Assembly: GCA_007375645.1 (NCBI GenBank)
Contig: VMER01000002.1
Coordinates: forward strand, 29,710 to 93,709
Direction: 5' to 3'
Length of the DNA stretch: 64,000 nt
From: Parcubacteria group bacterium LiPW_15
Lineage (GTDB): Bacteria > Patescibacteriota > Minisyncoccia > UBA6257 > 2-01-FULL-56-20
Part shown: in pieces, positions 935-63,104 of the stretch
How the letters are laid out: the number at the start of each line of letters is the position of its first letter
Position numbering within the stretch: the stretch's first letter is position 1
Translations under genes and position numbers: made by a program
Notes under the pieces: generated by a model
The model's input: only the letters and a program-made list of their open reading frames with translations
Databases searched by the model: none
What the model was told of the DNA's origin: nothing

Positions 935-969
935 CCGCTTTATAATACCTCAAGAAATTTTTTGGGCAA

Positions 970-16389: not shown

Positions 16390-16605
16390 CTACGATTGCG
16401 GCGCCGACACGGGCTTTTGGGGAAATACGAGACACAGAGCGAAGAGTGCCACTCCCACGCCGGAAGCGATCAGTTTGGTCTTGAGCGAGAACGGCACCAT
16501 GACCGAGAGAACGATCGCGGCGAATCCCAGGATCGCCGCTTCCGTTCGGATGGCTTCCCCTATCTTTCTTTGCATTTCAAACCTCCGCATGCCTGTAGCT
16601 AGCAT
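16390..16605 (-). CDS. Small membrane protein (hypothetical, 2 TM)
   Basis: 71 aa hydrophobic ORF sitting in an intergenic gap. Confidence 0.3.
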   Translation of the reverse strand: MLATGMRRFEMQRKIGEAIRTEAAILGFAAIVLSVMVPFSLKTKLIASGVGVALFALCLVFPQKPVSAPQS

Positions 16606-22255: not shown

Positions 22256-22297
22256 TAAAATCTCGAAAGTTAAAAAACGACGTAAGCCGTTTTTTTG

Positions 22298-22326
22298 TTG
22301 ACACAAGAAAACCATCTTGCTATAAC
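22298..22326 (+). promoter_or_regulatory. Sigma70-like promoter. TTGACA, 17-nt spacer, TATAAC.
   Basis: ttgaca at 22298-22303 and tataac at 22321-22326, upstream of the CDS at 22355. Confidence 0.45.
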
Positions 22327-22354
22327 GCAACTAGTCTTTCGAAAGGAGAACCAT

Positions 22355-22879
22355 ATGGAACTCAAACGAAATGGTTTCCTCTACGGCTTCGCGTACGCTT
22401 GGGCAAAGAATCCCCCCGATCAGACAGGCTCCTTTAGATTCCCTGGGCGGCTGATCCTGTCGCTCTTCATCGGCTGGCCCATCATTGTGCCGCTCGCCTT
22501 CCTCTTTTTGGCAATGGTGCCCGCGCGGGATGGCCTGGAAGTCTGGGGCGCCTGGAGGAAACGCGTTGGCAGGGATGTGCCTCCCGCCTGCGTTGCTATA
22601 ATCGTCGCGGCCGCCATCGGCGCAGCCTGGGGAATGATCCTTTGGCTCCTCTGGTCATTCGGCGGAGTCGCCCTCCCCAAGGATCCTCCGCTGCCGCTTG
22701 CTCTTGTCATGCTCCTGGGTCTTTATGGCTGGTTTGTGGGTCTCTGCGCATCCGCCGTTGAAGTCCTGTGGTTGGGATACAAGATCATCCTGTGGCTGGG
22801 ACGCAGGATTCTCATCCGCACCAATACCATCCGAGCATCCCTGAAGAAAAAGTTCTGTTTTGTCATCCGTTTCGTGTAA
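22355..22879 (+). CDS. Hypothetical polytopic membrane protein
   Basis: SD gaaaggag lies 7 nt upstream of ATG 22355. About 4 TM helices. Confidence 0.5.
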   Translation: MELKRNGFLYGFAYAWAKNPPDQTGSFRFPGRLILSLFIGWPIIVPLAFLFLAMVPARDGLEVWGAWRKRVGRDVPPACVAIIVAAAIGAAWGMILWLLWSFGGVALPKDPPLPLALVMLLGLYGWFVGLCASAVEVLWLGYKIILWLGRRILIRTNTIRASLKKKFCFVIRFV

Positions 22880-22886
22880 CGAAACA

Positions 22887-22916
22887 CCCCGCGCTTACGA
22901 CGCGGGGCTTTATTTT
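22887..22916 (+). terminator. Rho-independent terminator. CCCCGCG-cttacga-CGCGGGG plus T-tract.
   Basis: 7-bp GC stem followed by ctttatttt. Confidence 0.6.
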
Positions 22917-22934
22917 CAATAACCCGCCAAGCAA

Positions 22935-26462: not shown

Positions 26463-26522
26463 ATAGCAAAGTTTTGCCCTTCGCAATTTCGCGGGGTTTT
26501 ATATATTACTCAAGTTCCCGCA

Positions 26523-28453: not shown

Positions 28454-28924
28454 ATGCCGGCCGCAAATAACCGTATCATTAAACGTATGGGCGCTTTAGC
28501 GGAGAACAGAAAAGCTAGGTTCGATTATGAAATATTGGAAACCCTTGAATCCGGGGTGGAGCTTTTTGGTTTTGAAGTAAAGTCTGTTCGCGCCGGAAGA
28601 ATGGAGCTTCCCGGAAGCTATGTGATAATCCGCGGCGGAGAAGCCTATTTGGTGAATGCGAAGATTCCCGCCTATCAACCGAAAAACGCGCCCGAGGGTT
28701 ACGATCCGACCCGCGCCCGCCGGCTTCTTCTCCACAAAGAACAGATAAGCCGTCTCACGGGATTTTTGGAAACCAACCACTACCTTATCCCCCTCTCGAC
28801 TCATTCCAAAAAAGGATTGATAAAACTGGAACTCGGTCTGGCGCGCAAACGAAAGAAATCCGATAAACGTGAAGTTATAAAAAAACGCGAAGTCCAAAAA
28901 AAGATCCGCGCGCGCGAAGACTAA
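28454..28924 (+). CDS. smpB: SsrA-binding protein SmpB
   Basis: ENRKARFDYEILE .. FGFEVKSVRAG .. LLLHKEQI .. LIPLS.HSKKGLIKLELGLARKRKKSDKR. Confidence 0.85.
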   Translation: MPAANNRIIKRMGALAENRKARFDYEILETLESGVELFGFEVKSVRAGRMELPGSYVIIRGGEAYLVNAKIPAYQPKNAPEGYDPTRARRLLLHKEQISRLTGFLETNHYLIPLSTHSKKGLIKLELGLARKRKKSDKREVIKKREVQKKIRARED

Positions 28925-28948
28925 AAAAGGGCGGCTTCTCAGCCGCCC
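28921..28948 (-). terminator. Intrinsic terminator for the minus-strand ORFan. GGGCGGC-ttctca-GCCGCCC with an A-tract on plus, which is a T-tract on minus.
   Basis: 7-bp GC stem at 28929-28948, with aaaaaa at 28923-28928. Confidence 0.5.
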
Positions 28949-28966
28949 CGGTCCATTCCCGACTTA

Positions 28967-29593
28967 CTACCCGGGTCCCTCGGGCATGTTGATTCTCGCT
29001 CGCATCCCCCAGATCTCGTCGAAGGCTCGCTGCGAGTCCTCCGCCCTCGCCTTCTTCAGGTTTCTATCCAGAGCGGAGAGATCGCAGATCTTCTGGAAAA
29101 TACCTGCCCAAAAGATAGGCGGCGTGCCCATCTTGTCGGCCAGCGCCGCGATGTTCGGCTCCGCCACCGGGACGAACGAAGCTCTCGCCGGATACCAACG
29201 GCAAATGGATGTCTCGGAGTAGGTGAGAGCGTTGGAACAGGTTAGGAGGGCGAACCCTCCGGCCTTCAGAAGAAAGAGACACCACTCTTCCTTGTGGTCG
29301 CCTTTGTGGTCGACGAAAACTGGGGTCACCTCGGCGCAGAGAGAGTCGTAGCCGAGGCCGGATCCGAAGACCATCTTTTCGGGGTGAGGTCCGCCTCCGA
29401 CCCAACCCATTTTCTTGCTGACCACTCCGAAAAACTCCTGAAATCCCGAAGCATTCTTGAGCGGACCGAGCATCTCCAGCGCCTCCTGGATTATTTGCGC
29501 CCAGGTATTGCTATCGATCTCGTCGTACCAGTAGGGAGCATCCCTTCCCGCAATCACGGAGATTGGCGATGGTTGTCTCTTGGGCGTACCCAT
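28967..29593 (-). CDS. Hypothetical protein (GC-rich ORFan A)
   Basis: 208 aa. SD aggagg lies 7 nt before the ATG. GC-rich codon usage unlike the flanking genes. No recognisable motif. Confidence 0.5.
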   Translation of the reverse strand: MGTPKRQPSPISVIAGRDAPYWYDEIDSNTWAQIIQEALEMLGPLKNASGFQEFFGVVSKKMGWVGGGPHPEKMVFGSGLGYDSLCAEVTPVFVDHKGDHKEEWCLFLLKAGGFALLTCSNALTYSETSICRWYPARASFVPVAEPNIAALADKMGTPPIFWAGIFQKICDLSALDRNLKKARAEDSQRAFDEIWGMRARINMPEGPG

Positions 29594-29742
29594 ATGAGAC
29601 CTCCTATTGTGAAGTACCGGCGTACCGGTCTCAGCCTGTTATATCACGCGCCACTTAAACCATCAACACCATCCGCCAAGAAATATTGACTCCGAGTCCA
29701 AGCGGTCATAACATCTTCCTTAGAACACGAAAGGAGATCCCG

Positions 29743-30030
29743 ATGGCAGACGTCTTCGACTCCGTCGACCCCATAAGCCACAACGAGCCAGAGATCATCC
29801 AACTGCTCATACAGCGCAACTCCGCAGTGAGCGATGAGGAAAGGGCAACACTCAAGAAGAGCTACCTGCGCTTGCGCCCAGAGATCGCTAAGGACGAAAA
29901 GGCGCCGGCGTCTCTCGTCCCGGCGCTCGACACGATCTTCGACGTCATACCCGAAGATCTGCCCCCGAAGTCTCTCTGGGAACGAATCGGTGGATGGATC
30001 GAGCGAACCCTTTTCAATTTCGGTCCGTAA
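29743..30030 (+). CDS. Hypothetical protein (GC-rich ORFan B)
   Basis: 95 aa. SD aaaggag lies 6 nt before ATG 29743. A promoter-like TTGACT-17-TAACAT lies upstream. An intrinsic terminator follows. Confidence 0.5.
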   Translation: MADVFDSVDPISHNEPEIIQLLIQRNSAVSDEERATLKKSYLRLRPEIAKDEKAPASLVPALDTIFDVIPEDLPPKSLWERIGGWIERTLFNFGP

Positions 30031-30040
30031 CCGGATCCGA

Positions 30041-30070
30041 GCCGCAGGACCCCCCCTGCGGCCTTTTATT
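30041..30070 (+). terminator. Intrinsic terminator. GCCGCAGG-accccccc-CTGCGGC plus T-tract.
   Basis: 8-bp stem, then cttttatt. Confidence 0.6.
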
Positions 30071-30444: not shown

Positions 30445-30451
30445 AAATAAA

Positions 30452-33700: not shown

Positions 33701-33938
33701 AGGACACAACGATGCTGGAGGCTTCTAGTTCATAGCTCCTGGAGATTATATAGGCGCAAATTTTTAGAGCGACGGGAACAGACAGATACACTACCTCAGA
33801 ACACAAAACCCCAACCCCAAAGGCTTTTATCAGGGCTGTCAGATTTGCCATCCCTATTTTAAAATCTGGAGTTTTTGGCATATTCGCACCTCCAGCATAA
33901 TGCAGCCCCGCCAGAAAGCAATAATTCGTAGCCATCAC
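30765..33938 (-). CDS. KAP-family P-loop NTPase with an N-terminal 4-TM domain (1057 aa)
   Basis: Walker A GIDAPWGIGKSSF and Walker B IIIIDDLDRL, i.e. KAP signatures G.WG.GKS and hhhhDDLDR. About 170 aa of N-terminal TM helices. Long helical C-terminal region. Confidence 0.8.
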   Translation of the reverse strand: MMATNYCFLAGLHYAGGANMPKTPDFKIGMANLTALIKAFGVGVLCSEVVYLSVPVALKICAYIISRSYELEASSIVVSCAILVVGYLAGRGFFLDFVRLIRSARWDIAIAASAGILVDFSFGGFFSRQYAVLASALTIGQIFALLSLPFILCLIFLLKAALGRFKKRIKINEHSFFISDAELKPEGDDLLGFSDAARRFAEKVFNRGSSDSIVFGIDAPWGIGKSSFVNLCRGYWEKDDEYKKGAVVYRFNPLRYEGRSNLLEKFVDGLVRTIQKNEFIPEIRPLISRYSRLIKGRAGFSWSGLKLDFFPGTYTVDDAFDDLEIALSDSKKKVIIIIDDLDRLSFSAIKDVLFVIKKSFTLPNISYVLCYDTDNISALEREKPGVEKVTEFLEKFINVKTSIFLDSATLSNYVSQNLAKALAGNSQADPVLVSKAIGGLIDIYKSKDYHRYLPFIGDVRKLKRLLNTVLLFELEKTDFDNSDFDKHDLIHLLLIYINYPNIFRKIYDSETYGKSGFFSLPNPYSPGYPEDPTGSGDSKNVYKNSTEYTKYIETLTENPRFLLDKVFDASQRLKVSEDWFRKDNFPLIDSVPQEIKSSYACFNGEGGWTGGHNLEEYLNLIVKLSKPQKRNQYRFYLNYKNEIFAGKKIEDVLGGEEFSYSKSESSHEQLWRVVVNSISEAGAGVGGSLILYLLQNIANYSLFTSKDLGLGLRDDLLYFLIQLLDKAGWADPDGRRGANTEENISEIAEWIFGEGRHAGVGVIELLSTESRGVLGLYDLLAFRLFCSADRGGDIFNLQRALSKHNNPTAPTEGVVRAIVIEEMRAMSQKVFRIFKTRFIDPKINLFEVIDSLSLGDLASEFRSFVDAAMTDGKITKEEVDDKVAKLKNRAKSFITYQLGNDIISSGIGCGYYDQSGSGDSHGIRKDMNDYLFETCFNPNTNMQNYQIFLDYLLINFASTFASVDGRAFVANIGEFTKVIDKKRLADYWKANGVAIKALNLPEQGKVVITDNYAATYSEDLPKVYAVLDAFTSSMDALALDAPSIAISASVGAEDQAD

Positions 33939-34246
33939 TCCCTCGGCGATGAATTAGTTTAACTCCTTTGTTGCGGTTGGACGTGCAAAACAGACAAACC
34001 ATTTATATGATTTTCGGAGGATCGGGCTTAATTGATAGTGTTCCCAGAACCGAGAAAGGCAGGTTTTAAACGGTTCACCGTTTCGCCTACCACGCCCGCA
34101 TAACAAAATACTCACCCCTGCGGTGGGTGTTTTGTTATGTGGCACATATTGACGCGGAGTCGAACATAAGTTTGACTAATCTCCGCCGCGGAATATCCTG
34201 TAGTCAGCTCGCCACATATGCCAAATAGTTAGGAAAGGGGTGGCTT

Positions 34247-34432
34247 ATGCCTCTCTCCCTTCAGGAGCGTTACAACCGATATCGACTCGCCGGAGGCGAT
34301 CACGCGGACTTCGTCCTCGAACACGATCTGATAACGGATGACGAAACGGCGGCAAGCTTGAGGCGCAACTTCGCCGATGCGCATCCCGAACGTTCCTTGC
34401 CGAAACGAACCAACCGAGACCGGTCCGAATAA
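34247..34432 (+). CDS. Hypothetical small protein (GC-rich ORFan C)
   Basis: 61 aa. Followed 10 nt later by a second small ORF carrying a strong SD. Confidence 0.35.
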   Translation: MPLSLQERYNRYRLAGGDHADFVLEHDLITDDETAASLRRNFADAHPERSLPKRTNRDRSE

Positions 34433-34442
34433 GGAGGCTCGA

Positions 34443-34658
34443 ATGCCCGGAACAATGCACCACCACCCGGTGTCGGGTGTCCGCCTCTTCGGCACCCGAC
34501 TCCATCCCTACGACAAGCTTCTGCCAACCGATGTTTATGCGGCGCGCACCGGAGAATGGGAACAGTTGCGGGAATCCGGAACCCTGCTCTCGGAAAGCGT
34601 TTGCGCATACATCGTGCGCCCCGAAGGGGCGACCCAGGAAACCGCGCTCGCCGCGTGA
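34443..34658 (+). CDS. Hypothetical small protein (GC-rich ORFan D)
   Basis: 71 aa. SD aaggagg lies 6 nt before ATG 34443. A T-tract follows. Confidence 0.4.
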   Translation: MPGTMHHHPVSGVRLFGTRLHPYDKLLPTDVYAARTGEWEQLRESGTLLSESVCAYIVRPEGATQETALAA

Positions 34659-36478: not shown

Positions 36479-37027
36479 ATGGGTCTTTTTTATACCGGAA
36501 AAGGAGATAAAGGAGTCAGCGAAGTTTGGGACGGAAAAAAACTGGATAAGACTTCCGTGGAGTTGGTGGCCTTGGGCGACTTGGATGAATTAAATAGTCT
36601 TTTGGGGTTGGTGCGAAGCCGCACCCCGGATAAAAATAACAAGAAAGTTTTGCTCTCCGTCCAGGATGAGCTTTTTACCATCCAGGCGAATATTTATCTT
36701 CTGGCTATCGGCAGGCTTGAGAAAGCCCCTGAACTCGGCGAAGAAAAAGTTAGAATGGTGGAACGCATAATAGACGCATTGGAAGAGTTTGTCGGCCCGG
36801 AGCGTGGCTTTGTCATCTCCGGCGAAGATCCGGAAGAGGCTTGGCTGGATTTTGCCCGCGCCGTTGCAAGGCGCGCGGAGCGCAGCGCGATAGAACTTAA
36901 TAAAAAAATGGCGTTGCCCGAAAATGTTTTGGCTTATTTAAATCGGCTTTCGAGCTTGCTTTTCGCCATGGGCAGAGCTTCCGCGAAAAAACGCGGCAAA
37001 AAAGAAAAGGGGCCATCATATAAATAG
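36479..37027 (+). CDS. ATP:cob(I)alamin adenosyltransferase, PduO type
   Basis: YTGKGDKGVSEV N-terminal motif (TGDxG-type) and the helical-bundle pattern of PduO/MMAB. TATAAT at 36466-36471 lies upstream. Confidence 0.7.
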   Translation: MGLFYTGKGDKGVSEVWDGKKLDKTSVELVALGDLDELNSLLGLVRSRTPDKNNKKVLLSVQDELFTIQANIYLLAIGRLEKAPELGEEKVRMVERIIDALEEFVGPERGFVISGEDPEEAWLDFARAVARRAERSAIELNKKMALPENVLAYLNRLSSLLFAMGRASAKKRGKKEKGPSYK

Positions 37028-37051
37028 GCCCCGCCGAAGCGGGGCCAGAAC

Positions 37052-38485
37052 TCAGGGAATGCGGGAAAGGGCGATCGGATCTCTTGCGCGACTGCCTCTC
37101 AGAAGCGCGAGCAGATCTTCGAAGCGGCGACAGCCGGTATCGCTTCTCGCGTTGGCAAGAGCGATGCGGAAATTGTCCTCTCCGGAATCGCGGGTGTTCG
37201 GCGGAAGATTCCACCTCTCCTTGGCCACGATCAGCGTCTGAAGCGCGCGAGATTCGACATCGGCCAAGCTGATCTCGGCATCACCATAGATGCGCCGCGA
37301 GAGGCTCGCAACGCTGATGTCCGGAACCACTCCCTCGTTTCTGTCGTAAACCATGCACCGGAAAAAGATCTCTGCCTTCGGCGGAAGCACCTGTAGACTT
37401 CCGAGGTTCGGCTTGGCCGGCGATTTGTCCTCCGGCGGCGGAATCTCTGCCTTCTTCTTGGCTCCAAGGGTCGAGACTGCCTTAGCTGTCTTCCTGTTGG
37501 TCTTCTTGGGCTTGAGGGAAAGCTCGGTCCGCTCCGCAGCCTTCTCGGGCTCGGGAAGCGTGGCGCGCGCAGGCGGTTTCTTGGCCTCTTGTTTTTCGAG
37601 CTCCGAATTCTCGGGGGCGTCCCAACCCTTTTGAAGCGAGATGACCGAATGAAGTTCCTTGGCCAGAACCGAAAGACTCTCGAGTCTTGCGAGAAGATTC
37701 TTTCTCGAGGACTCGGTCAGGGCGCGGCAGGCCTCTTTCTGATCGCCCGAAGGAAGAGCGAGAAACGCCTTAGCGAGAGGTATGGCTGTGTTAGCCCTCC
37801 AGCCATAGAAAGCCAGAATCTTCCCCAAGATCCCGGCGGGTGATTTCGGAAGCTTGCTGACCGTGAGATTGATGCCATGAGCGGTTTGTCCCAGTTCTCG
37901 CGCCCCAACCGTGAACGCATCGCGGCCGGCGGCGAGATCATGAGCCATGCGGATGAGCCTGCCCTTCTCCCCTCGGTACTGCGCGAGAGAGAGCGCACCG
38001 ACCTGCGGAAGGCTCCCCGTCCGAACCATCTCCTGAATCTCCTCGGGGAGCTCCAAGAGCTTTAACCGGTTCAGAATGGTGAGCTCGGCTCGTCCGGTCA
38101 GTCGCCCGATTGAAGCGATCGTTTTTCCCCGCCCTCGAAGCTTTTTCAAGTACCTGGCTTCGTCAATCGGGTTGAGATCTTTGCGGCAGCAATTTTCCAC
38201 GAGCGAAGCAATTTCCGGATCCGATTCGCCGCTCAGGATGAGACACTCGATGAATTCCCATCCAAGAATTCGGGCGGCCCTTATGCGCCTTTCTCCGGCG
38301 ACAAGGTCGAAATAGCCTTCCGCCTCCGACGGCTTGACCGTCGGCGGCTGGATCAGCCCCTCCTCCTCGATGGAAGCGGCCAGCTCCCTTGTTTCGTCAT
38401 CATCGAACGTTTGTCTCGGCTGATTGGGATTCAGCAGAATGTGATCGAGTCGAACCTCAACCAATTCTTTTCGAGCATCTCTCAT
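37052..38485 (-). CDS. ParB/Srx-domain (ParB-like nuclease) protein with a Pro/Lys/Ala-rich C-terminal region. No partner parA.
   Basis: LDHILLNPNQPRQ .. LAASIEEEGLIQP .. LVAGERRIRAARILG, the ParB N-terminal domain. Start at internal Met 38485 with SD aggaaaggag. GC-rich. Confidence 0.65.
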   Translation of the reverse strand: MRDARKELVEVRLDHILLNPNQPRQTFDDDETRELAASIEEEGLIQPPTVKPSEAEGYFDLVAGERRIRAARILGWEFIECLILSGESDPEIASLVENCCRKDLNPIDEARYLKKLRGRGKTIASIGRLTGRAELTILNRLKLLELPEEIQEMVRTGSLPQVGALSLAQYRGEKGRLIRMAHDLAAGRDAFTVGARELGQTAHGINLTVSKLPKSPAGILGKILAFYGWRANTAIPLAKAFLALPSGDQKEACRALTESSRKNLLARLESLSVLAKELHSVISLQKGWDAPENSELEKQEAKKPPARATLPEPEKAAERTELSLKPKKTNRKTAKAVSTLGAKKKAEIPPPEDKSPAKPNLGSLQVLPPKAEIFFRCMVYDRNEGVVPDISVASLSRRIYGDAEISLADVESRALQTLIVAKERWNLPPNTRDSGEDNFRIALANARSDTGCRRFEDLLALLRGSRARDPIALSRIP

Positions 38486-38645
38486 CTTCGAGATCTCCTT
38501 TCCTAATATCGAATTGAAGAACCAAGAACATTCTATGCGCCGCCCGCCAGATGTAAAGCCCTTTGACACTTCCCCCCACTCCGCTAATATACTAAGGTAG
38601 CAATCGAAAGCTGTTCGGCCTCCGGGCCCAAGCATATAACCCGCC

Positions 38646-40371: not shown

Positions 40372-40471
40372 TACCTAATACTACACTGGGCGCCAAAAGC
40401 AGGAAAGGGTTTCGGCCCTTGACATTAAGGGTTGGTTTACGGATATTATACCCAGCAGAAAGGAGGACGAA

Positions 40472-41116
40472 ATGCCCACAAAGCGGTTTTTGATCGAAGT
40501 TCCGGACGCCGCTTATGTGCAGGAGTTCTGGCGCGAAGGTGGTTCACCGGTAATGTGCGGAATGGCCGAAGTTACCGCAGAATCAATCCGGCTTCAGCTC
40601 CTCGCCGGGGCAGGCGTGGCGGAGATCGACAAAACGATCGAGCCCCAAAAAGAAAGGTTGTTGACGCTTGTGTGCATCTCGTTCGACAACCAAGCGAGCA
40701 TCACAGTAACCGAAGTGAAAACCGAGGACAAGGATGGGTCCGAACGAAAGGAGGGCGAAATGCCCACGATCACCGTCGATTGTTGCGCCGGGAGAGAAGA
40801 CTACCCGGGCCAGTGCCTGAAGAGCCGCTGTCCTCACTATGAGGCTGCGCGCCGCCGGCTCCTAGAGTTCCAGCCTCCGTACGTGGGGACGGGGTTCGGG
40901 AGCCTTCACAAGGAACCGACCCACAGCCAGTTCCTCGTTGCGGTCAAGGAAGACCTTGCCAATTCTCGCGCGGCATGCGCGCGGGCCGAACGCCTCTTCA
41001 ACACCGCCTATGGATGCGGCAATGATCTGACCCAGGAAAGTGGCGTGTGGTTCCGGGCCCACCTCACCGAGTGCAAGCCCTGTGCCGATCGCTTCACCCG
41101 CGCAACGGCTTCGTGA
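40472..41116 (+). CDS. Hypothetical Cys-rich protein (GC-rich ORFan E)
   Basis: 214 aa. SD aaaggagg lies 7 nt before the ATG. TTGACA at 40419-40424 lies upstream. A strong terminator lies downstream. Several CxxC-like pairs. Confidence 0.5.
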   Translation: MPTKRFLIEVPDAAYVQEFWREGGSPVMCGMAEVTAESIRLQLLAGAGVAEIDKTIEPQKERLLTLVCISFDNQASITVTEVKTEDKDGSERKEGEMPTITVDCCAGREDYPGQCLKSRCPHYEAARRRLLEFQPPYVGTGFGSLHKEPTHSQFLVAVKEDLANSRAACARAERLFNTAYGCGNDLTQESGVWFRAHLTECKPCADRFTRATAS

Positions 41117-41124
41117 GCCGTCCT

Positions 41125-41158
41125 GCCTCGCCCGCCCATGGGCGAGGCTTATTTATTT
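41125..41158 (+). terminator. Intrinsic terminator. GCCTCGCCC-gcccat-GGGCGAGGC plus T-rich tract.
   Basis: 9-bp perfect stem. Confidence 0.65.
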
Positions 41159-48378: not shown

Positions 48379-49725
48379 TTATATTACGATTTCTTCGGCC
48401 TTTTGGGGGACATATGAGTCCACCGACAGTTCCTCTTTCACCTTTGCGGCCAAAATCTCGCTCGAACCTTCTTCGCCTTGTACTACAAAAACTTTTTTGA
48501 GCATCCCGCTCCGAGGCTTAAGCCACTCAAGAAGCCGGGGTTGGTCTGCGTGAGCGGAATAAGCGGTTATGGTTCGGATCTCACAACGCACCGGCACCTC
48601 CTCCCCGAACAGCCTCACGACTTTTGCTCCCTCGAGAATGGCTCTTCCCAGGGTTCCCGTGGCCTGATATCCGACAAAAAGAATGATGCTTTTGGGATCC
48701 GGCAGATAGCGCCGTTCATGATGGCGGATCCTCCCTCCGTTCGACATACCCGACCCGGCCATTATTATCTTCGGCGCGGGGACATCGTTTATTTCTTTGG
48801 ACTGTTCCACGGTAAGCGTCATGCGAAGCCCCGGGAAATTCAAAATATCTTCTCCCGACTTCACGAGCTTGAACGTTTCCGGATTAAAGTAGCTTTCGTA
48901 TTTTTTGTAGACAGCGGTCAACTTGATAGCCAGCGGGCTGTCTATAAATATCGGGATTTCCGGAACCCGACCCTGGCTTATGAGTTCGTGAAAGTGATAA
49001 AGAAGCTCCTGGGTGCGCTCCATGGCGAAGGCCGGGATCATCAGTACGCCTCCCTTCCTCGCGATGTCCTCCATAACGTCTTCGAGCTCCCCCTCTCTTT
49101 TTGAAGTATCCTCGTGCACGCGCGCGCCATAAGTGGATTCGATGACGCAATAATCCACTTCGGGCAAATGTTCGGTGTTGTGGATTATCGGTGCGGGATA
49201 GTTGCCGAGATCTCCGGAGAACATGATCGACTTGCCCTCCGCCTCTATTTTTATGGTTGCAGAGCCCAAAATGTGGCCTGCGTCATAAAAAGTTATTTTA
49301 AAATTCCCGACTTGGACCGGCTTGTGATACGGCACCGTCTCCCATATCGCCATTGCCGCCTCCACGTCTTCCGTCTCATAAAGATCCGGCAAACCGGTCC
49401 TATCCGATTCTTCCTGAAGAACGTGCTCCGAATCGATAAGAAGAAGTTCCGCGAAGTCTTTTGTCGGCGGAGTGGAATATATTTTCCCCTTGAACCCGTC
49501 TTTAACTATTTTCGGCAGCTTTCCGGTGTGATCGATATGAGCATGGGTCACGAATATCGCCTGGACCGAAGATACATCGTATGCGAAATCTTCGAAGTTT
49601 TCTTTTTCCGCAAAATCAGAGCCCTGCGCCATACCGCAGTCTACGAGTATCCGGGTGTTCCCGGACTCAACCATATAATTGGAACCCGTAACACTCCCCG
49701 CTCCTCCGTAAAATATAACTTTCAT
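48379..49725 (-). CDS. MBL-fold beta-CASP RNA-metabolising hydrolase
   Basis: HAHIDHTG motif 2, D..GHILGSA, beta-CASP motifs. 448 aa. Confidence 0.75.
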   Translation of the reverse strand: MKVIFYGGAGSVTGSNYMVESGNTRILVDCGMAQGSDFAEKENFEDFAYDVSSVQAIFVTHAHIDHTGKLPKIVKDGFKGKIYSTPPTKDFAELLLIDSEHVLQEESDRTGLPDLYETEDVEAAMAIWETVPYHKPVQVGNFKITFYDAGHILGSATIKIEAEGKSIMFSGDLGNYPAPIIHNTEHLPEVDYCVIESTYGARVHEDTSKREGELEDVMEDIARKGGVLMIPAFAMERTQELLYHFHELISQGRVPEIPIFIDSPLAIKLTAVYKKYESYFNPETFKLVKSGEDILNFPGLRMTLTVEQSKEINDVPAPKIIMAGSGMSNGGRIRHHERRYLPDPKSIILFVGYQATGTLGRAILEGAKVVRLFGEEVPVRCEIRTITAYSAHADQPRLLEWLKPRSGMLKKVFVVQGEEGSSEILAAKVKEELSVDSYVPQKAEEIVI

Positions 49726-49763: not shown

Positions 49764-49791
49764 TTGACAAAATTAGGAAACAACTTATTAT
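49764..49791 (+). promoter_or_regulatory. Sigma70-like promoter. TTGACA, 16-nt spacer, TATTAT.
   Basis: ttgaca at 49764-49769 and tattat at 49786-49791, upstream of ORFan F. Confidence 0.45.
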
Positions 49792-49828
49792 GTGGGGAGT
49801 CTCAGGATCCTTGAAAGGAGTCTGCTGA

Positions 49829-50416
49829 ATGAGTGAAGCTGGCCAGAGGACCGCGGAGTCAGTGGTAGAGCTCGCGGAACCGCCCGACAAAACCGCCAAG
49901 ACCCTGGTTTTTCGGGTCTACAGAACGTATCGGTTCCGATTCGTCCAGGGAAAAGACGGGAAGATGGAGATGCTCGGAAGGTGGAAGGAGGGCGCGGAAG
50001 GCAGGGTCTCTTCCAGAGACATCTGGATTCCGCCGCAGGTCTACCGCGACATGCTGGCGATGGCCTACGCCGTCGCCAAGGAACACTTCAGGCCCGATCC
50101 GATTCCCGAACCGACCGACGGGCCAAGGTCTGACGCCTCCGGGAAAAGCTCGGCACAGCCGACAAACGGCATGCCGCCGAAGCCAATCTCCGACGAAGAG
50201 CGCGACCAGATCCTTTTCGGAGAGAGGAGCTCTTCTCTGCTCGAGAGGGCCGAACCGCGACCGGACTCTGACCCCTCGGGCTACCCGTGTGCGGATTTCA
50301 TTCCGCACCGCCCCCGCGCCTCGACCGTCTCCAGGAAAAACGACCCGCAGAAGGTCCCCTACCGGCGCGTAGCCAGTTGGCGTAGCCACCCGCCGCCTTC
50401 TTCGATCCCCGCCTGA
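49829..50416 (+). CDS. Hypothetical protein (GC-rich ORFan F)
   Basis: 195 aa. SD gaaaggag lies 8 nt before the ATG. The first 60 nt are about 65% G+C. No known motif. A nested-hairpin terminator at 50422-50478 follows. Confidence 0.5.
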   Translation: MSEAGQRTAESVVELAEPPDKTAKTLVFRVYRTYRFRFVQGKDGKMEMLGRWKEGAEGRVSSRDIWIPPQVYRDMLAMAYAVAKEHFRPDPIPEPTDGPRSDASGKSSAQPTNGMPPKPISDEERDQILFGERSSSLLERAEPRPDSDPSGYPCADFIPHRPRASTVSRKNDPQKVPYRRVASWRSHPPPSSIPA

Positions 50417-50469
50417 ACAATCCCCGCAAGTTCCGTCCGCCGACCGGCGAATAGGACTCGCGGGGTTAT

Positions 50470-51714
50470 TTATTTTTTAATACCCAACTCTTCTTCAAAA
50501 ATCTGCTTTTCGTTCCAAGGAATTTTTTCTCCCTTTTTAATATGTATCCAGGATTCACTTCCTTTGCCGGTAGAAATTATTGTGTCTCCGGGTCTCGCCA
50601 TTTTTATCGCCTCTCTTATCGCCGCGCGGCGATCAACCATTTCCAAAATTTCATTCTCGGGAAATCCTGCCTCTCGAATCCCTTTTTTGATTTCCGAAAT
50701 TATTTCTGCCGAGTCTTCGTCGTACGGATCCTCATCCGTCAAAATTATCCGATCGCAGTATTCCGCAGCCGTCTTACCCATAGCGGGCCGTTTCCACTTA
50801 TCTCTCCCGCCCCCCGCGGCGCCCAAAAGACATGTTAAGCGAGCTCCGCCGGACAATTCCTCTTTTAACGCTTTATATATTGCCGCGAGCGATTCCGGCG
50901 TGTGCGCATAATCCACGACCACTTTGAAGGGTTTCCGCTGGACGATATCCACTCTCCCGGGAGCTCCTTTGAAATTCGCAATGCCTTCCCAGATCTTTTC
51001 GTCGGGAATGCCGAACTCTTTCGCGACCGCGACGGCCAAAGCCACGTTTTGTTTACTGAAGTGGCCCGGCAAATATTCCCGCGAAGATTCCGGAAGATCC
51101 CGGAGTCCTTCGGTCGAATAAATTATTATCTTGTTGCCCTTAAGCTCTCGTTCAAAAAAATCTTTTTCTTCCTCCTCGCCGTTTAAAAAGATGGGCGCAT
51201 TCTCACCTCCCGCGTACGCGAGAAACCGAAGTTTTGCTTCCCGATATTTTTCATAAGAGCCGTGAGCTTCGATGTGTTCCGGATGGATATTGGTAAGCGC
51301 GGCTGCGGCCCAGTTTATCAGCGCATGCCGATAAAGAACCGCGCCCTGGGAAGTAGCCTCCACAAACGCGTAAGCGCAACCGGCATTCACCGCCTTGCGT
51401 AAAAATCTCTGGATATACATCCTTCCCGGCATGCTGTTTTCGGTAAGGTTTCGTTTGGATTTTTCTCCGATCTTCACCCGCACCGAAGAAAGAAGCGCGG
51501 TTTTTTCTCCCGCCGATTCAAAAATGGAGTTTAGGAGTTCGAGCGCGGTGGTTTTTCCTTTGGTTCCGGTTATGCCGATAACCCTTATAAATCTGCTGGG
51601 CCTCCTGTAGATTATTGCGCCCAGGATCGTGAAAAGAAGATGGTATCCGCGCAGAAGCCAGGGCAGTTTGTATATCCAGCGGAAAAGAAAGGATCTTTTT
51701 ATTTTGCCGAGCAT
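50470..51714 (-). CDS. Mur ligase family protein (MurE-like)
   Basis: GITGTKGKTTALELL P-loop of the Mur ligase central domain. 414 aa, shorter than canonical MurE. Confidence 0.65.
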   Translation of the reverse strand: MLGKIKRSFLFRWIYKLPWLLRGYHLLFTILGAIIYRRPSRFIRVIGITGTKGKTTALELLNSIFESAGEKTALLSSVRVKIGEKSKRNLTENSMPGRMYIQRFLRKAVNAGCAYAFVEATSQGAVLYRHALINWAAAALTNIHPEHIEAHGSYEKYREAKLRFLAYAGGENAPIFLNGEEEEKDFFERELKGNKIIIYSTEGLRDLPESSREYLPGHFSKQNVALAVAVAKEFGIPDEKIWEGIANFKGAPGRVDIVQRKPFKVVVDYAHTPESLAAIYKALKEELSGGARLTCLLGAAGGGRDKWKRPAMGKTAAEYCDRIILTDEDPYDEDSAEIISEIKKGIREAGFPENEILEMVDRRAAIREAIKMARPGDTIISTGKGSESWIHIKKGEKIPWNEKQIFEEELGIKK

Positions 51715-52285: not shown

Positions 52286-52457
52286 CTATTTATTATACTC
52301 GGCAGCGAGGCTGCGCGGAAATGCTTGGATCTCCGTGTCAGCTGAGTGACCATTGACATATCCTGAGATTGTGCGCTAAGATATCCCAGTCGTTAGCCCA
52401 ATTGCGGGCTCGCGACATGCTCTTTCAACCGAAAACGGAAGAAAAAAAGGAGTCTGG

Positions 52458-52880
52458 ATGCACCGAGACCACAGTCCCCCGCCGAAGACGCTCGCGATCG
52501 TGGTGGCCGCTCTCGTGGCGTTCCTCGTCGCCAATGTCGGTTTCGCGACCCCCGTCATTCTCAGCACGGGCCTCGCGAACACTTCGACGTGGACGCCCTC
52601 GCTCGCCTCCGCCGACCAGCCGGCCAAGATCGCTGGCTGGAACGACATCGCGTCCGAGACCGCCGTCGTCACCGCCAACTCGACGACCGCCCTCACGATG
52701 TCGTCCGCCCACTACAAGATCGCCCTCGACGGGCCCGCGATGTACGCACTGCCGGAGAACGGAGGCCGACCCGGCCGACCCGCCACCGCGCCGATCGCCG
52801 CGATAAACGATGGCGCCGACCGGATCAACTCGACGGTACGCTCCGCCACCCGCGACACCCTCATGGTCTGGAGGGTGTAA
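52458..52880 (+). CDS. Secreted hypothetical protein (GC-rich ORFan G)
   Basis: 140 aa. Signal-like LAIVVAALVAFLVANVGFA. SD aaaggag. TTGACA at 52353-52358 lies upstream. Confidence 0.5.
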   Translation: MHRDHSPPPKTLAIVVAALVAFLVANVGFATPVILSTGLANTSTWTPSLASADQPAKIAGWNDIASETAVVTANSTTALTMSSAHYKIALDGPAMYALPENGGRPGRPATAPIAAINDGADRINSTVRSATRDTLMVWRV

Positions 52881-52905
52881 GACGCCGAAGTCCTTCTAGC
52901 CCCTT

Positions 52906-52942
52906 GGGCGGACGAGAAACCCTCGCTCCGCCCTCTTTTTTT
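52906..52942 (+). terminator. Intrinsic terminator. GGGCGGA..TCCGCCC plus T8.
   Basis: 7-bp stem at 52906-52912 / 52927-52933, then tcttttttt. Confidence 0.55.
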
Positions 52943-53014
52943 ACTTTTTCACGAAGACCTTGATATTTCTCCGGCTTTTTTGTATGCTTTTCCTGTTCTA
53001 GATTCCACAAAAAC

Positions 53015-57953: not shown

Positions 57954-58239
57954 TTTGCTATTTTGGCCTTATTTTGCGGGCTTCTCCGGGGGGATTGACA
58001 AATGGGTATTTATATGCTAAACTTACGCAACAAATTGAATAGTCGCCTTACATCTGGGGGCAGGAATTGTTTTTAGATATTTAAGGATGGGTTGGCCTCG
58101 GCGAGCCCTCTCCTCGAAATAATTCTATCCTCTTTCCACTCTGTGCGAAAGAGAAACCCAATCCTTAACCGGACGCCCCCAGGTATAAGGCGATTATGCT
58201 ATCGCCCGCAATTTGAAAAGGTTAGAAGGAGAACTTGCG

Positions 58240-58410
58240 ATGGAACCCTACGGCTTTTTCGAAAGAATCGGCACCGGCGCTTTTGCCGCAGCATTCGTCG
58301 GCCTAGCGACACGCGACTGGCGTTTCGGGGTTGCAACGTTTTTCGCCGCATTCCTCGTGGATATGTGGATTGAGAACGTCGTCGAAGCGATCAGGTCGAC
58401 CAAGAAGTAG
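58240..58410 (+). CDS. Small hydrophobic protein (GC-rich cassette H)
   Basis: SD aaggag lies 8 nt before ATG 58240. MEPYGFFERIGTGAFAAAFVGLA.. Confidence 0.35.
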   Translation: MEPYGFFERIGTGAFAAAFVGLATRDWRFGVATFFAAFLVDMWIENVVEAIRSTKK

Positions 58411-58644
58411 GACACATTCGGAAAGGAGCGATTCGTGCTGTTATTTTTTTACTCCTAGCCGCCACGGCCGTCTGCGTCTTCGCGGGACGAAGCGGGACTG
58501 ACCGCCGCGATTCGGCCGCCGCATGCGCTGCGGCCGCCGTCTGCGGCGGACTGGCAATCTTCAACCTCGCCCTCGCAGTCGCCGGAGACATCCTGAGCGC
58601 AATCAACAAGTAGCTCTTCTCGCCCGCTCGCACTCGCCTCCTCC

Positions 58645-58671
58645 GCCGACCCTCGTGGTCGGCTTTTTTTT
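58645..58671 (+). terminator. Intrinsic terminator. GCCGACC-ctcgt-GGTCGGC plus T8.
   Basis: Perfect 7-bp stem. Confidence 0.6.
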
Positions 58672-58731
58672 GACAAATTTTTCTTCCGGCATATCCTTTG
58701 GTCAGCCCGCCAAACCGAAAGGAGCCTAGAA

Positions 58732-58929
58732 ATGGGAAGTGAACACGCAACCGCACCTCCTACGATAGTGACCATGGACAGCAAGCGCCGTTCCCAAGGG
58801 TTCATGGACGGACTCCTCGGCGACCCCCCGGAGGAAACGTCCGACGAATATTGTCGCGACTACGACAAGGGTGTCGCGGCATCCAAAGCCGTCATCGCCA
58901 AGCTCGACGCGAAAACCCCGAAGGGATAG
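58732..58929 (+). CDS. Hypothetical small protein (GC-rich cassette J)
   Basis: 65 aa. SD gaaaggag lies 7 nt before the ATG. Followed by a near-copy of the upstream terminator. Confidence 0.35.
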   Translation: MGSEHATAPPTIVTMDSKRRSQGFMDGLLGDPPEETSDEYCRDYDKGVAASKAVIAKLDAKTPKG

Positions 58930-58951
58930 CCGCGCCGCAACCGCTCCTTCC

Positions 58952-58980
58952 GCCGGCCTACGTGGTCGGCTTTTTCTTTC
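58952..58980 (+). terminator. Intrinsic terminator, paralogous to 58645-58671. GCCGGCC-tacgt-GGTCGGC plus T5.
   Basis: About 85% identical over about 40 nt to the terminator region at 58626-58671. Confidence 0.5.
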
Positions 58981-60849: not shown

Positions 60850-60878
60850 TTGACAAACTTAATATTATTTGATATAAT
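60850..60878 (+). promoter_or_regulatory. Consensus sigma70 promoter. TTGACA, 17-nt spacer, TATAAT.
   Basis: ttgaca at 60850-60855 and tataat at 60873-60878, upstream of the lipoprotein gene. Confidence 0.55.
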
Positions 60879-60921
60879 GCGCCCAGATTCGAAGCTTGAA
60901 AAGAAAGAAGGGAGGCGCGTT

Positions 60922-61653
60922 ATGCGCTCCAAAAACATCGCCCTCGTAACCCTCGTCGCTCTTCTCTCTTCGATCCTCGCGGGATGCATCTCTTTCCCGG
61001 CGATCGAGAAGTTCGTCCCTCCCGACGGGGTAGCTCCGACCTTCTCGGTCAACAACAAAACCTCGATGGTCGGAACTATGGCGGCGTACGACAAGAAGGT
61101 CGCGGAGTTCTATCCCAATGGGACCCTCTACGACAAGAACTGTGCGCGCCCGGTCCCGACGCAGATACCCATCGTGGTCCTTTTTCACGACAGCAACAAT
61201 AACTATCTGGGAGTCTTCGCCCGCGTCCTGAACCTGGGCCCGGGGGCGCAATCGACCTCCTGGACGATCGGAGAAGAAGACGTTGTCTACTTCGGAGAGA
61301 GACTCCGAAGGCCCGATCACTCCGCTCCCCCTTATGAGCCGAGCTCTGAGGAAATCAGCCTCCCGTGGACAACAAACATGGAGGCCTGGGCGCAGGTTCC
61401 CAACGATACCCCAAACGAGTTGCTTGTGAAGAGGAACGGGAAAATCCACGTTCGGATCGCAAGCGGCGCTCTTTGGGCGCAAAGGATGGAAACCGTTTAC
61501 CCCGGGGCCCGAACTCAACCGATCCACATCGAGATATTCGGGTACACCTCGGAGGGCGAACAGCTTGGAATCGCGGAATTCTGGCTCGCCCCGCAAAACG
61601 ACGGAGTCTCCGCGATGCAGTTCGTGGTCTCCCCCAACACGCTTCGCTACTAG
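60922..61653 (+). CDS. Predicted lipoprotein (lipobox LAGC), hypothetical. GC-rich cassette.
   Basis: SD gaagggagg lies 6 nt before ATG 60922. MRSKNIALVTLVALLSSILAGCIS. Confidence 0.55.
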   Translation: MRSKNIALVTLVALLSSILAGCISFPAIEKFVPPDGVAPTFSVNNKTSMVGTMAAYDKKVAEFYPNGTLYDKNCARPVPTQIPIVVLFHDSNNNYLGVFARVLNLGPGAQSTSWTIGEEDVVYFGERLRRPDHSAPPYEPSSEEISLPWTTNMEAWAQVPNDTPNELLVKRNGKIHVRIASGALWAQRMETVYPGARTQPIHIEIFGYTSEGEQLGIAEFWLAPQNDGVSAMQFVVSPNTLRY

Positions 61654-61675
61654 TTGCTCTTTGCCTTCTCGCCCG

Positions 61676-61708
61676 CCCGGACAGTCCATGGATTGTCCGG
61701 GTTTTTTG
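61676..61708 (+). terminator. Intrinsic terminator. CCCGGACAGTCC-atg-GATTGTCCGGG plus T6.
   Basis: Roughly 11-bp stem with one mismatch, then ttttttg. Confidence 0.65.
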
Positions 61709-62748: not shown

Positions 62749-62848
62749 TTTCTCTTTTGGACTCCGCCAAAACTCTTGACAGGTATTCCTCAGCCCTTAT
62801 ACTGACCTTTGTAAAAAAATAAAAGGTCATTAGTATCCCTAGAAACAA

Positions 62849-63058
62849 ATGAAGCACGGCTCCGAAACTCAGGACTTCTTAGACCCGGACATCGACGGCG
62901 TGGATGTGGACGCGGAGGCGGGCCTTATAGCCGACGGCCCGGAAGAAGAAGCTGAACTTCCAATCCCGCTGGATCCTTATCTCGAAACATCTTCGGGATC
63001 GGCCGCTCCCGGAATAAGAATTGACCGGGAAGCAGCAGAGGAACAGGAAGAACAATAG
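62849..63058 (+). CDS. Small highly acidic protein (69 aa, Asp/Glu-rich), hypothetical
   Basis: MKHGSETQDFLDPDIDGVDVDAEAGLIADGPEEEAELPIPLDPYLE.. A strong terminator follows. Confidence 0.4.
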   Translation: MKHGSETQDFLDPDIDGVDVDAEAGLIADGPEEEAELPIPLDPYLETSSGSAAPGIRIDREAAEEQEEQ

Positions 63059-63069
63059 AAAAGACCATA

Positions 63070-63104
63070 CCGCCCGCGCAACTGCGCGGGCGGGTTATTT
63101 ATTG
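63070..63104 (+). terminator. Intrinsic terminator. CCGCCCGCGCA..TGCGCGGGCGG plus T-rich tract.
   Basis: 11-nt perfect inverted repeat. Confidence 0.6.

Follow-up and report, generated by a model that had tools for sequence, protein, structure and literature searches.

GC-rich orphan genes of the Parcubacteria bacterium LiPW_15 form a separate class that may occupy fixed single-gene expression slots

Our analysis of a 64,000-nt stretch of the genome of Parcubacteria group bacterium LiPW_15 (Candidate Phyla Radiation (CPR)/Patescibacteria), called the window below (49.5 % GC), showed that its short orphan genes constitute a real and separate class of at least 13 self-contained units, and that the gene at 49829-50416(+), the focal gene of this study, is protein-coding and under purifying selection. 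The best explanation we can offer for the focal locus, in which our confidence is about even, is that it belongs to a set of single-gene expression slots, fixed in position between conserved core operons, in a clade of Parcubacteria at the level of a genus or family. Every such slot would supply a sigma-70-type promoter, a 24-75-nt leader with an AGGAG Shine-Dalgarno (SD) sequence, a start codon and an intrinsic terminator, and the open reading frame (ORF) body placed in it would be restricted to the clade, rich in GC at third codon positions (GC3) and diverging 2.5-6 times faster than its neighbours. Homologous recombination through the flanks and expression signals, both of them conserved, may move the bodies between related lineages, in a way that would resemble 'replacement flexible genomic islands' at the scale of one gene. 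The driver could be diversifying selection on proteins that face a host, a phage or a competitor; several class members are lipoproteins or membrane proteins. The excess of GC, seen at all three codon positions, would be a maintained property rather than a foreign relic, with GC-biased gene conversion accompanying recombination, or else selection on the mRNA, as its most plausible cause.

ORFs are named here by the letter c and their window coordinate (c49829 is the focal ORF), and L-numbers (L003, L004, L084-L087, L090, L133, L154 and others) denote the loci or contigs of relatives used for comparison. The promoters and terminators of the units are sequence predictions, made by a consensus scan and by folding of hairpins with T-runs, respectively.

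The focal gene is conserved in one position between core genes

The focal ORF (49829..50416, +) encodes a protein of 195 aa, identical to 'hypothetical protein LiPW15_581' on a 101.5-kb contig, with a GC content of 0.63 (GC1/2/3 0.60/0.54/0.76). Its predicted promoter at 49764..49791(+) matches the consensus at 11/12 positions (-35 TTGACA, 16-nt spacer, -10 TATTAT), and the SD sequence AAAGGAG at 49814..49820(+) stands 8 nt before the ATG in a 5' untranslated region (UTR) of ~37 nt, with a duplex energy of -8.5 kcal/mol. The predicted intrinsic terminator at 50422..50478(+), a long GC hairpin with TTATTTATTTTTT (-26.3 kcal/mol), is shared with the convergent Mur-ligase family gene at 50470-51714(-); on the other side lies a divergent gene for a β-CASP metallo-β-lactamase nuclease (48379-49725(-)). 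Beyond the Mur-ligase gene follow genes for RuvA, S20, a holA-like protein, a histidine kinase, a 5'-3' exonuclease, TsaE and RuvB. The GC3 of the focal neighbours is 0.50-0.60, compared with 0.76 in the focal gene. The initial annotation, which flagged this locus as one of several moron-like cassettes, had put the G+C of the first 60 nt of the ORF at about 65 %; it is exactly 65 %, and 33-53 % in ten core genes.

A search of 5.8 billion proteins with the focal protein returned one homologue (P0002, 43 % identical), and a profile search of 1.84 billion representative proteins gave a family of eight members; the locus is also carried by an independent Logan assembly. The slot between the β-CASP and Mur-ligase genes holds a family member in all six of the loci that could be examined (L003, L004, L084, L085, L086 and L087), which together with the window make up seven family loci. 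In all seven, the -35 box TTGACA is invariant, the -10 box reads TATTAT or CATTAT, and an SD core (AGGAG, GGAGG or AGGGG) is kept within a UTR that varies around it; a GC hairpin with a T-run follows the stop codon at every orthologous locus, the stem sequences differing. The encoded proteins are 30-48 % identical (80 % for the sister pair L003/L004), compared with 79-93 % for the neighbours. The dN of the focal gene is 2.5-6 times that of its neighbours, with dS saturated (>1) for all genes, and dN/dS is 0.14 between L003 and L004 and 0.29-0.41 between the window and these two loci. GC3 is 0.69-0.76 in every lineage and ~0.50 in the flanks. That the ORF carries a coding signal is borne out by the dN/dS of 0.14 and by its order of GC3 > GC1 > GC2.

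The focal gene has been inherited in one fixed slot across all the sampled lineages in which it was detected. Being conserved and syntenic in relatives, at six of six loci, it is therefore not a recent moron, and the proposal that it was recently acquired fails. Nor is the term supported in its phage sense, the flanks being chromosomal housekeeping genes and the unit being conserved in all seven family loci. In more distant Parcubacteria, the β-CASP/Mur-ligase junction measures 27-120 bp or has other content, such as a peptide deformylase gene. Pairwise distances within the family are roughly star-like, with L084 closer to L003/L004 in the focal gene than in core genes; this mild incongruence is compatible with rate heterogeneity or with an occasional exchange of alleles.

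A separate class of self-contained, GC-rich genes

The observation made by the initial annotation at its listed cassette loci is confirmed, with some corrections: 34247-34658 holds two SD-coupled ORFs, the ParB-like ORF starts at 38485, and two members were added. The higher G+C of the cassettes relative to flanking genes also stood up when windowed GC and GC3 were computed, since neither profile is uniform. GC in 200-nt windows averages 0.495 (standard deviation 0.056) across the whole window, and every listed locus coincides with 200-nt windows of GC at or above 0.58 (e.g. 49851-50500 at 0.614 and 52401-52950 at 0.647). Segments of at least this GC content that are longer than ~450 nt all fall at listed loci, with one extra at 22351-22800. 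Class ORFs have the order GC3 > GC1 > GC2 and GC3 values of 0.67-0.89, and the GC3 of 31 core genes is 0.548 ± 0.046; in a comparison of 11 class ORFs with these core genes, the GC3 distributions do not overlap (Mann-Whitney U = 0, p = 2.7e-6).

An AGGAG-type SD is found 5-9 nt before the ATG of every class ORF. The SD duplex energy is -8 to -12 kcal/mol in the class and averages -2.6 kcal/mol in core genes (p = 1e-5), in agreement with the claim that core genes mostly lack a strong SD; holA alone has a strong one among the core genes tested. An unbiased scan of both strands for an SD, an ATG and an ORF of at least 40 aa recovers all class members, and adds those at 16390-16575(-) and 22355-22879(+). 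The same scan shows the AT-rich gene for a KAP-family P-loop NTPase (30765-33881(-)) to be likewise SD-led, and a strong SD is thus not always tied to high GC. Class promoters rank at the top of the promoter scan (12-position consensus), with 12/12 matches at 60850, 11/12 at 49764, 10/12 at 52353, 40419, 58670 and 38557(-), and 9/12 for the others. A GC hairpin with a T-run stands directly 3' of the stop codon of c22355, c28967, c29743, c37052, c40472, c49829, c52458, c58732 and c60922. The units are autonomous, as had been proposed, except that c58240 has no good promoter of its own and the pair at 34247-34658 no clear terminator.

The class proteins are unrelated to one another and, as had been stated, have no recognisable domain: searches of Pfam, NCBIfam, PHROG and PADLOC gave no match except for the ParB-like protein. 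A lipobox or transmembrane (TM) segments are found in ~5/13 class members, the focal protein having neither. No cassette body recurs in another slot or locus, and a repeat search found no boundary repeat common to the units. A known RNA was rejected as the cause of the GC islets, the Rfam gathering search having given one tmRNA and two tRNAs only.

Coding status is demonstrated by dN/dS for the focal gene and c60922 only; for the smallest class ORFs, termed putative here, the indications of coding are the SD and GC3 periodicity. Most units are overlapped by long ORFs that are antisense or out of frame, there are no homologues with which constraint could be tested on the smallest ORFs (c16390, c34247, c34443, c58240 and c58732), and a genuine structured RNA adjoins c58240. 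These observations would agree with some or all of the small units being non-coding, that is, GC-rich spacer with chance ORFs whose true products are RNAs or nothing. We nevertheless regard this as very improbable: the focal gene combines its low dN/dS and codon-position periodicity with membership of an eight-member family sharing conserved motifs, and the antisense ORF opposite it is not conserved in L003; the lipobox of c60922 is conserved and its dN/dS is 0.34; SD and ATG are correctly spaced in every unit; and there is no Rfam family match to the units.

Two modes of translation initiation

The start regions of class and core genes differ in more than the SD. Between -20 and +40, core genes have a GC content of 0.38 and a minimum free energy (MFE) of -7.3 kcal/mol, and are A-rich from -11 to -1; class genes have a GC content of 0.53, an MFE of -11.8 kcal/mol (p = 2e-4), a G-peak from -11 to -7 and leaders of 24-75 nt. 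In core operons, a TATAAT box often lies 5-11 nt ahead of the start codon of the first gene, which has no SD (e.g. 7818, 7842, 16657, 36479, 46028 and 52285); this implies mostly leaderless mRNAs. The internal genes of these operons abut the preceding stop codon and are A-rich upstream. Core genes are SD-poor across 73 Parcubacteria loci, whatever their GC content. SD-independent initiation thus looks like the clade-wide mode for core genes, and the SD-poor core agrees with the report that only 48 % of Parcubacteria have a detectable anti-SD motif (PMC9297842). The leadered, structured and GC-rich mRNAs of the class may need an SD because they could not use leaderless or A-rich, SD-independent initiation. 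That the whole pattern is general to Parcubacteria was rejected: SD-led small ORFs of more distant members average a GC3 excess of +0.02, and those with a large excess are concentrated in the close clade.

Could the units be ordinary resident genes that are very highly expressed, with promoter, SD, terminator and G/C-ending codons all reflecting selection for expression or translational efficiency? Near-consensus promoters and strong SDs speak for this, as does the codon usage of the class, in which NNC is preferred over NNT and AAG over AAA. However, the compositional shift concerns all three codon positions and the amino acids (P, R, W, C and T up; K, F, Y and I down), which points to a general GC-favouring pressure on weakly constrained proteins rather than to codon-specific translational selection, and the excess of C3 over G3 in class genes follows the strand. 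The ribosomal protein genes for S20 and L20 have no SD and a GC3 of 0.52-0.63, and do not share the GC shift. Highly expressed genes normally evolve slowly, whereas the class is orphan and evolves 2.5-6 times faster. We therefore see high expression as an improbable explanation.

Other slots are gained, emptied or refilled

The initial annotation had proposed repeated acquisition of whole units, and this part of its proposal survives for c22355, c52458, c28967 and the slot between the NUDIX and PolX genes, which have been gained, lost or replaced, although the focal unit itself is conserved and syntenic. The c22355 unit, ~670 bp in the window, is wholly absent from L133, where the stop codons of the tryptophanyl- (TrpRS) and isoleucyl-tRNA synthetase (IleRS) genes abut; the two loci are otherwise close (IleRS 95 % and TrpRS 91 % identical, ~89 % at the nucleotide level). 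In the outgroup L090, the TrpRS/IleRS junction has an apparent gap of only ~26 nt (from tblastn coordinates, not an alignment), and the apparent absence of the unit there makes a gain likely.

A different kind of change is seen at c28967. The window and L154 are 100 % identical over 1,067 nt on the arginyl-tRNA synthetase (ArgRS)/SmpB side and 95 % identical over 609 nt on the c29743 side, and the 640-680 nt between these flanks do not align. In the L154 slot, the SD, the ATG and the MGTP.R start are the same; the ORF that they open, of 200 aa, shares 30 % identity with c28967 over 54 residues (E = 2e-5) and is followed by its own, different terminator. The breakpoints lie in the last smpB codons and at about codon 6 of the coding sequence (CDS), with identity dropping from 100 % to near-random precisely at the CDS and terminator and recovering to ~96 %, all within a single 2.3-kb contig. 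At the NUDIX/PolX slot, the window and L003 share the -35, the -10, the SD and the T-tract of the terminator, and the ORFs are unrelated (214 vs 96 aa, both Cys-rich). The RuvA/S20 slot is empty in L003 and L004, where just the two neighbouring promoters remain; L085 has in this slot a 157-aa ORF, 30 % identical to c52458 (E = 0.002) and with a GC3 of 0.96, and L084 an unrelated SD-led ORF. Finally, L004 has a syntenic orthologue of c60922 that is 39 % identical (dN/dS 0.34, lipobox conserved), the 85 nt upstream being 80 % identical and the CDS 52 %. As judged from these alignments, slots other than the focal one are shown to have been gained, emptied, or refilled with another ORF body between nearly identical flanks.

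Origin of the units and of their GC content

The initial annotation suggested GC-richer donors as the source of the cassettes. The corresponding explanation, that moron-like autonomous cassettes were acquired repeatedly from GC-richer, SD-using donors or phages and that both their composition and their SD are foreign, has several points in its favour. Both the composition and the initiation signal of the units set them apart from the rest of the genome; close relatives differ in having or lacking c22355 as a whole promoter-to-terminator unit, which the outgroup apparently lacks; c52458 is absent from L003 and L004; the class includes a ParB-like gene with phage-family matches; and a tmRNA gene and the KAP NTPase gene, typical neighbours of islands, are nearby. 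On the other hand, c49829, c52458, c40472 and c60922 have no homologue outside the clade among 5.8 billion proteins, and c52458 and c40472 none at all in that set. A phage, plasmid or viral origin was rejected after tblastn of the focal protein against INPHARED and PLSDB and IMG/VR scans with c52458, c40472 and c60922 came back empty. No donor, phage or plasmid homologue was thus found for any cassette tested, and there is therefore no positive evidence for GC-rich donors. GC-rich relatives within the Parcubacteria were likewise rejected as SD-using donors, their core genes being SD-poor in the 73 loci whatever the GC content. Moreover, the focal gene and c60922 have been inherited in place, in synteny with relatives, and the promoters match the host consensus and are themselves conserved in place. 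We therefore consider foreign acquisition unlikely as a general explanation of the class.

The composition of the units bears on the same question. Lineages that are more than one synonymous substitution per site apart have the same GC3, and simple amelioration would therefore need an implausibly high starting GC3; the retention of high GC3 in all orthologues in spite of saturated dS would fit a maintained property better than a fading foreign signature. Surveys of species-specific orphans found that their GC content tracks that of the genome (GC and GC3 0.45 vs 0.46, rho 0.96) and that orphans of viral or phage origin, like de novo ones, have a lower GC content (PMC11293555). The GC-rich orphans of the window are therefore atypical. 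Among possible causes of the excess, we prefer GC-biased gene conversion, although its effect size here would be exceptional. It is preferred because the slots seem to recombine (the L154 case) and because recombination-associated GC enrichment has been reported across bacteria (PMC4450053).

Several observations weigh against our explanation in terms of recombining slots with maintained GC. The comparison covers one 64-kb window and 5-20-kb pieces of a few relatives. L154, which supplies the clearest replacement, is a 2.3-kb metagenomic contig that could be a chimera of strains, even though its ORF, SD and terminator are intact. The 75 nt upstream of the focal gene are only 53-61 % identical overall, with only the motif elements kept. 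All dN/dS values are below 1 and so give no sign of diversifying selection. Gene-conversion effects reported in bacteria are modest, and a GC3 of 0.9 in a 49 % GC genome would be of exceptional size. A polarised third-position test gave 6 AT->GC and 10 GC->AT changes, which are too few events, and slow decay from a very GC-rich ancestor would also be compatible with these counts. Lastly, the presence of an anti-SD in the 16S rRNA of LiPW_15 is deduced from the conservation of the SD.

Relation to known systems

The closest known concept is that of replacement flexible genomic islands, described in streamlined aquatic genomes (López-Pérez et al., 2014; PMC4033161). As in those islands, a fixed position between core genes has differing content in close relatives, which we found at the β-CASP/Mur, SmpB/c29743, NUDIX/PolX and RuvA/S20 slots, and products are often located at the cell surface. 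The sharp identity boundaries that imply exchange through the flanks of the islands may have a counterpart here in one case, the window versus L154. The islands are, however, multi-gene clusters for exposed cell structures, whereas our units are single genes (two in one case) of 0.3-1.5 kb. The units also differ in that the conserved frame includes the promoter, the SD, the first codons and the T-tract of the terminator, that the content is GC-richer than the genome with an initiation mode unlike that of the core, and that some slots, including the focal one, diverge in place without replacement. In our view, the units are the replacement-island concept scaled down to slots for one gene, together with an unusual division of the genes by composition and mode of translation.

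Phage morons have in common with the units a self-contained promoter-gene-terminator structure, a deviant composition and insertion between functional genes or operons. In contrast to morons, the units have no prophage context, their flanks (β-CASP nuclease, Mur ligase, RuvA, S20, TrpRS, IleRS and SmpB) being kept in relatives; the cassette ORFs tested have no phage homologue apart from the ParB-like one, and the focal model has no significant viral fold match (BFVD). The focal unit is also vertically conserved, whereas patchiness holds for c22355 and c52458. Integron cassettes are, like the units, small and single-ORF, of unrelated function, and gained, lost and replaced. They differ in having no promoters, in having attC sites and in clustering by an integrase gene, while the units are dispersed, each with its own promoter and terminator; we found no shared boundary repeat and no integrase domain in the Pfam-scanned ORFs, though no dedicated attC model was run.

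Species-specific orphans (Vakirlis et al., 2024; PMC11293555) resemble the class genes in being short, more disordered and taxonomically restricted, under weak purifying selection and mostly without a viral match, and differ in that the GC of the latter is ~10 points, and their GC3 15-35 points, above that of the core. As to initiation, there are SD-independent lineages in which few genes carry an SD, for example the Bacteroidetes. In these as in LiPW_15, the core has no SD, starts are A-rich and unstructured, and a small subset has a strong SD. The SD-bearing subset of LiPW_15 is however a fast-evolving orphan accessory class, not autoregulated ribosomal genes, and many first genes of its core operons are apparently leaderless.

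The focal protein

The focal protein has no signal peptide or TM segment, and no significant match was found in Pfam, among PDB sequences, or with Foldseek against PDB and BFVD. AlphaFold2, run on an eight-sequence alignment, gave a predicted local distance difference test (pLDDT) score of 78-88 for residues 20-90, with four β-strands and a helix at 69-86, and predicted the C-terminal half to be disordered; short motifs are conserved in this tail (SDEExDxIL, GYPCADFIP and PYRR..GRRG). The protein is probably cytoplasmic, with a small β/α domain and a disordered tail. This combination of a small domain with conserved short motifs in a disordered tail makes partner binding more probable, and a partner-binding role through linear motifs is the most that can be suggested for its function.

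Five of nine family members (P0002, L004, P0003, P0004 and P0008) end in QQRIF, QQKIF, QTPLF, QVPIF or QMSLSF, where shuffled tails would be expected to give 0.003 ends of the Qxx[IL]F type; the members are related to one another. A basic GRRG stretch stands before these ends; the window copy lacks the terminal motif and closes with ...SSIPA. The Qxx[IL]F-type ends may resemble the bacterial β-sliding-clamp-binding pentapeptide (Qxx[LIM]F / QL[SD]LF), which is offered as a lead only. As a separate observation, the neighbourhood of the focal gene is rich in genes for DNA repair and replication (PolX, UDG, RuvA/B, a holA-like gene and a 5'-3' exonuclease).

Other members of the class

The remaining members lie on both strands of the window. 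The first, at 16390..16575(-), is a putative 61-aa ORF of membrane type with a GGAGGT SD, a GC3 of 0.70 and one TM-like segment. The c22355 unit (22257..22925, +) consists of an upstream hairpin, a promoter (TTGACA-17-TATAAC), an SD, the ORF 22355-22879, which encodes 174 aa with three TM-like segments, and a terminator. The c28967 unit (28921..29668, -) has a 208-aa ORF (28967-29593) with an SD of -10.9 kcal/mol, a GC3 of 0.72 and a terminator at 28928-28949. It is followed by the c29743 unit (29686..30062, +), directly upstream of the tmRNA gene, whose 95-aa ORF (29743-30030; terminator 30041-30062) is 95.7 % identical in L154. A two-gene mini-operon at 34172..34658(+), without a clear terminator, contains the putative ORFs c34247 (61 aa, GC3 0.63) and c34443 (71 aa, GC3 0.72), the SD of the second overlapping the stop codon of the first.

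The c37052 unit (37027..38557, -) encodes the ParB-like protein in a 477-aa ORF (37052-38485) with the promoter TTTACA-16-TAGAAT, an SD of -9.0 kcal/mol, a GC3 of 0.67 and a terminator at 37027-37046. Its ParB/Spo0J domains score above the curated cut-offs, with 66.2 bits for PF02195 (ParB_N; cut-off 26.3), 35.3 for PF17762 (HTH_ParB; 22.6) and 93.5 for TIGR00180 (58.45), and it has PHROG ParB-like matches.

The c40472 unit (40419..41148, +) has a 214-aa ORF that, as had been noted, is Cys-rich (4.7 % Cys), with an internal second SD and ATG at 40746-40762. A 22-nt element comprising SD, ATG and first codons (GAAAGGAGGxCGAAATGCCCAC) at 40458-40479 is repeated in frame at 40746-40767, 288 nt further on. 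With no stop codon in between, the internal start could give an additional Cys-rich product of 118 aa. A duplicated domain was rejected, only the 22-nt SD-ATG-MPT start being repeated and the halves being otherwise unrelated.

The c52458 unit (52353..52942, +) has a 140-aa ORF (52458-52880) with a GC3 of 0.89 and an N-terminal hydrophobic anchor, and the c60922 unit (60850..61702, +) a perfect consensus promoter, an SD, an ORF for a 243-aa lipoprotein (60922-61653) with the lipobox LAGC (LTGC in L004), and a terminator at 61675-61702; both agree with their earlier assignment as secreted or lipoproteins. Between them lie c58240 (58240..58410, +), a putative 56-aa hydrophobic ORF with an SD directly downstream of a conserved small RNA (sRNA), and the c58732 unit (58670..58970, +), with a promoter (TTGACA-16-TATCCT), an SD, a 65-aa ORF (58732-58929) and a terminator at 58952-58970. 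At the position of c58240, L003 and L004 carry different small hydrophobic ORFs. In the interval 58411-58671, a 66-codon open frame between c58240 and a terminator at 58645-58663 encodes an Ala-rich hydrophobic peptide without a canonical start, and could be a frameshifted gene or have a non-canonical start. The terminators at 58629-58671 and 58936-58978 (that of c58732) are copies of each other at 79 % identity, so that a unit may have been duplicated in tandem here.

Other features of the window

The sRNA (~170 nt, 58016-58203(+), promoter 57995-58023) is 93-98 % identical in L003 and L004 despite saturated dS and folds with an MFE of -83.7 kcal/mol (z = -5.9). Its homologues stand between ruvB and a T2SSE/pilB-like gene in five distant loci, with a clear terminator of their own in 4/5 and a downstream ORF in 0/5; c58240 and c58732 are inserted between the sRNA and the T2SSE gene in this genus. 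Compensatory double changes occur at 18/53 consensus pairs, 0/500 shuffles reach the observed score, and 93.5 % of cells in the alignment are paired, compared with 42-55 % in slid controls. The copies are at 18103-18289 in L003, 3410-3597(-) in L004, 1378-1571(-) in L015, 1283-1463(-) in L010, 1216-1396(-) in L013, 1420-1600(-) in L018 and 815-981(-) in L022, and the covariance model finds further ones in L023, L024, L027 and L056. A comparison with Rfam 15 gave no family match at E <= 1, and candidate identities are a 6S-like RNA, another housekeeping RNA or a new one. A role of its CU-rich motifs as anti-SD sponges was judged unlikely, these motifs being inside conserved stems.

A further self-contained unit at 62776-63093(+) has a promoter (TTGACA-16-TATACT, 11/12), a 69-aa acidic ORF (62849-63058) and a perfect 10-bp GC hairpin terminator; with no SD and a GC3 of 0.54, it falls outside the class. 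The IleRS gene (22935-26486(-)) has an unusual insertion, a complete His_Phos_1 domain at residues 510-677 between catalytic segments, and IleRS with this insertion is conserved at 95 % identity in L133. The tmRNA gene (30122-30445(+), tag ANFNVAAPSRALAYA) is followed by the gene for the KAP-family P-loop NTPase (1,038 aa), which has a GC content of 0.43 (0.39 in the 32-33 kb stretch) and a strong SD. It resembles a separate, AT-rich acquisition beside a classical island integration site, the tmRNA gene.

Biological significance

Small genes without annotation abound in the genomes of CPR/Patescibacteria, and it is not settled how these episymbionts diversify their interaction repertoire. The orphan fraction seen here is not noise: it is arranged in promoter-SD-terminator slots whose positions are fixed, and in which gain, loss and replacement of alleles can be measured. 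The units could also form a dedicated class of host-interaction or effector genes, the alternative offered by the initial annotation. In this clade, accessory and core genes can be told apart by a simple rule, the combination of a strong SD with elevated GC3, which should help annotation and the selection of candidates for studies of host interaction. The slots are moreover a natural test case for GC-biased gene conversion versus selection in bacteria, and for the coexistence of SD-dependent and SD-independent initiation in a lineage of which about half reportedly has no anti-SD.

It is possible, if quite unlikely on present evidence, that the clade runs a two-tier system of expression, in which core genes are translated from SD-free mRNAs that are leaderless or A-rich, fixed 'expression sockets' drive hypervariable, clade-endemic genes by SD-dependent initiation, and the high GC3 of the latter is a footprint of recombination. 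The cell could then control all of its accessory or host-interaction repertoire together, for instance by way of anti-SD availability. GC3 values of up to 0.89-0.96 in a genome of 48-49 % GC would then be the footprint of intense, locus-specific recombination with GC-biased repair, and few local signals of biased gene conversion, in whatever bacterium, would be stronger.

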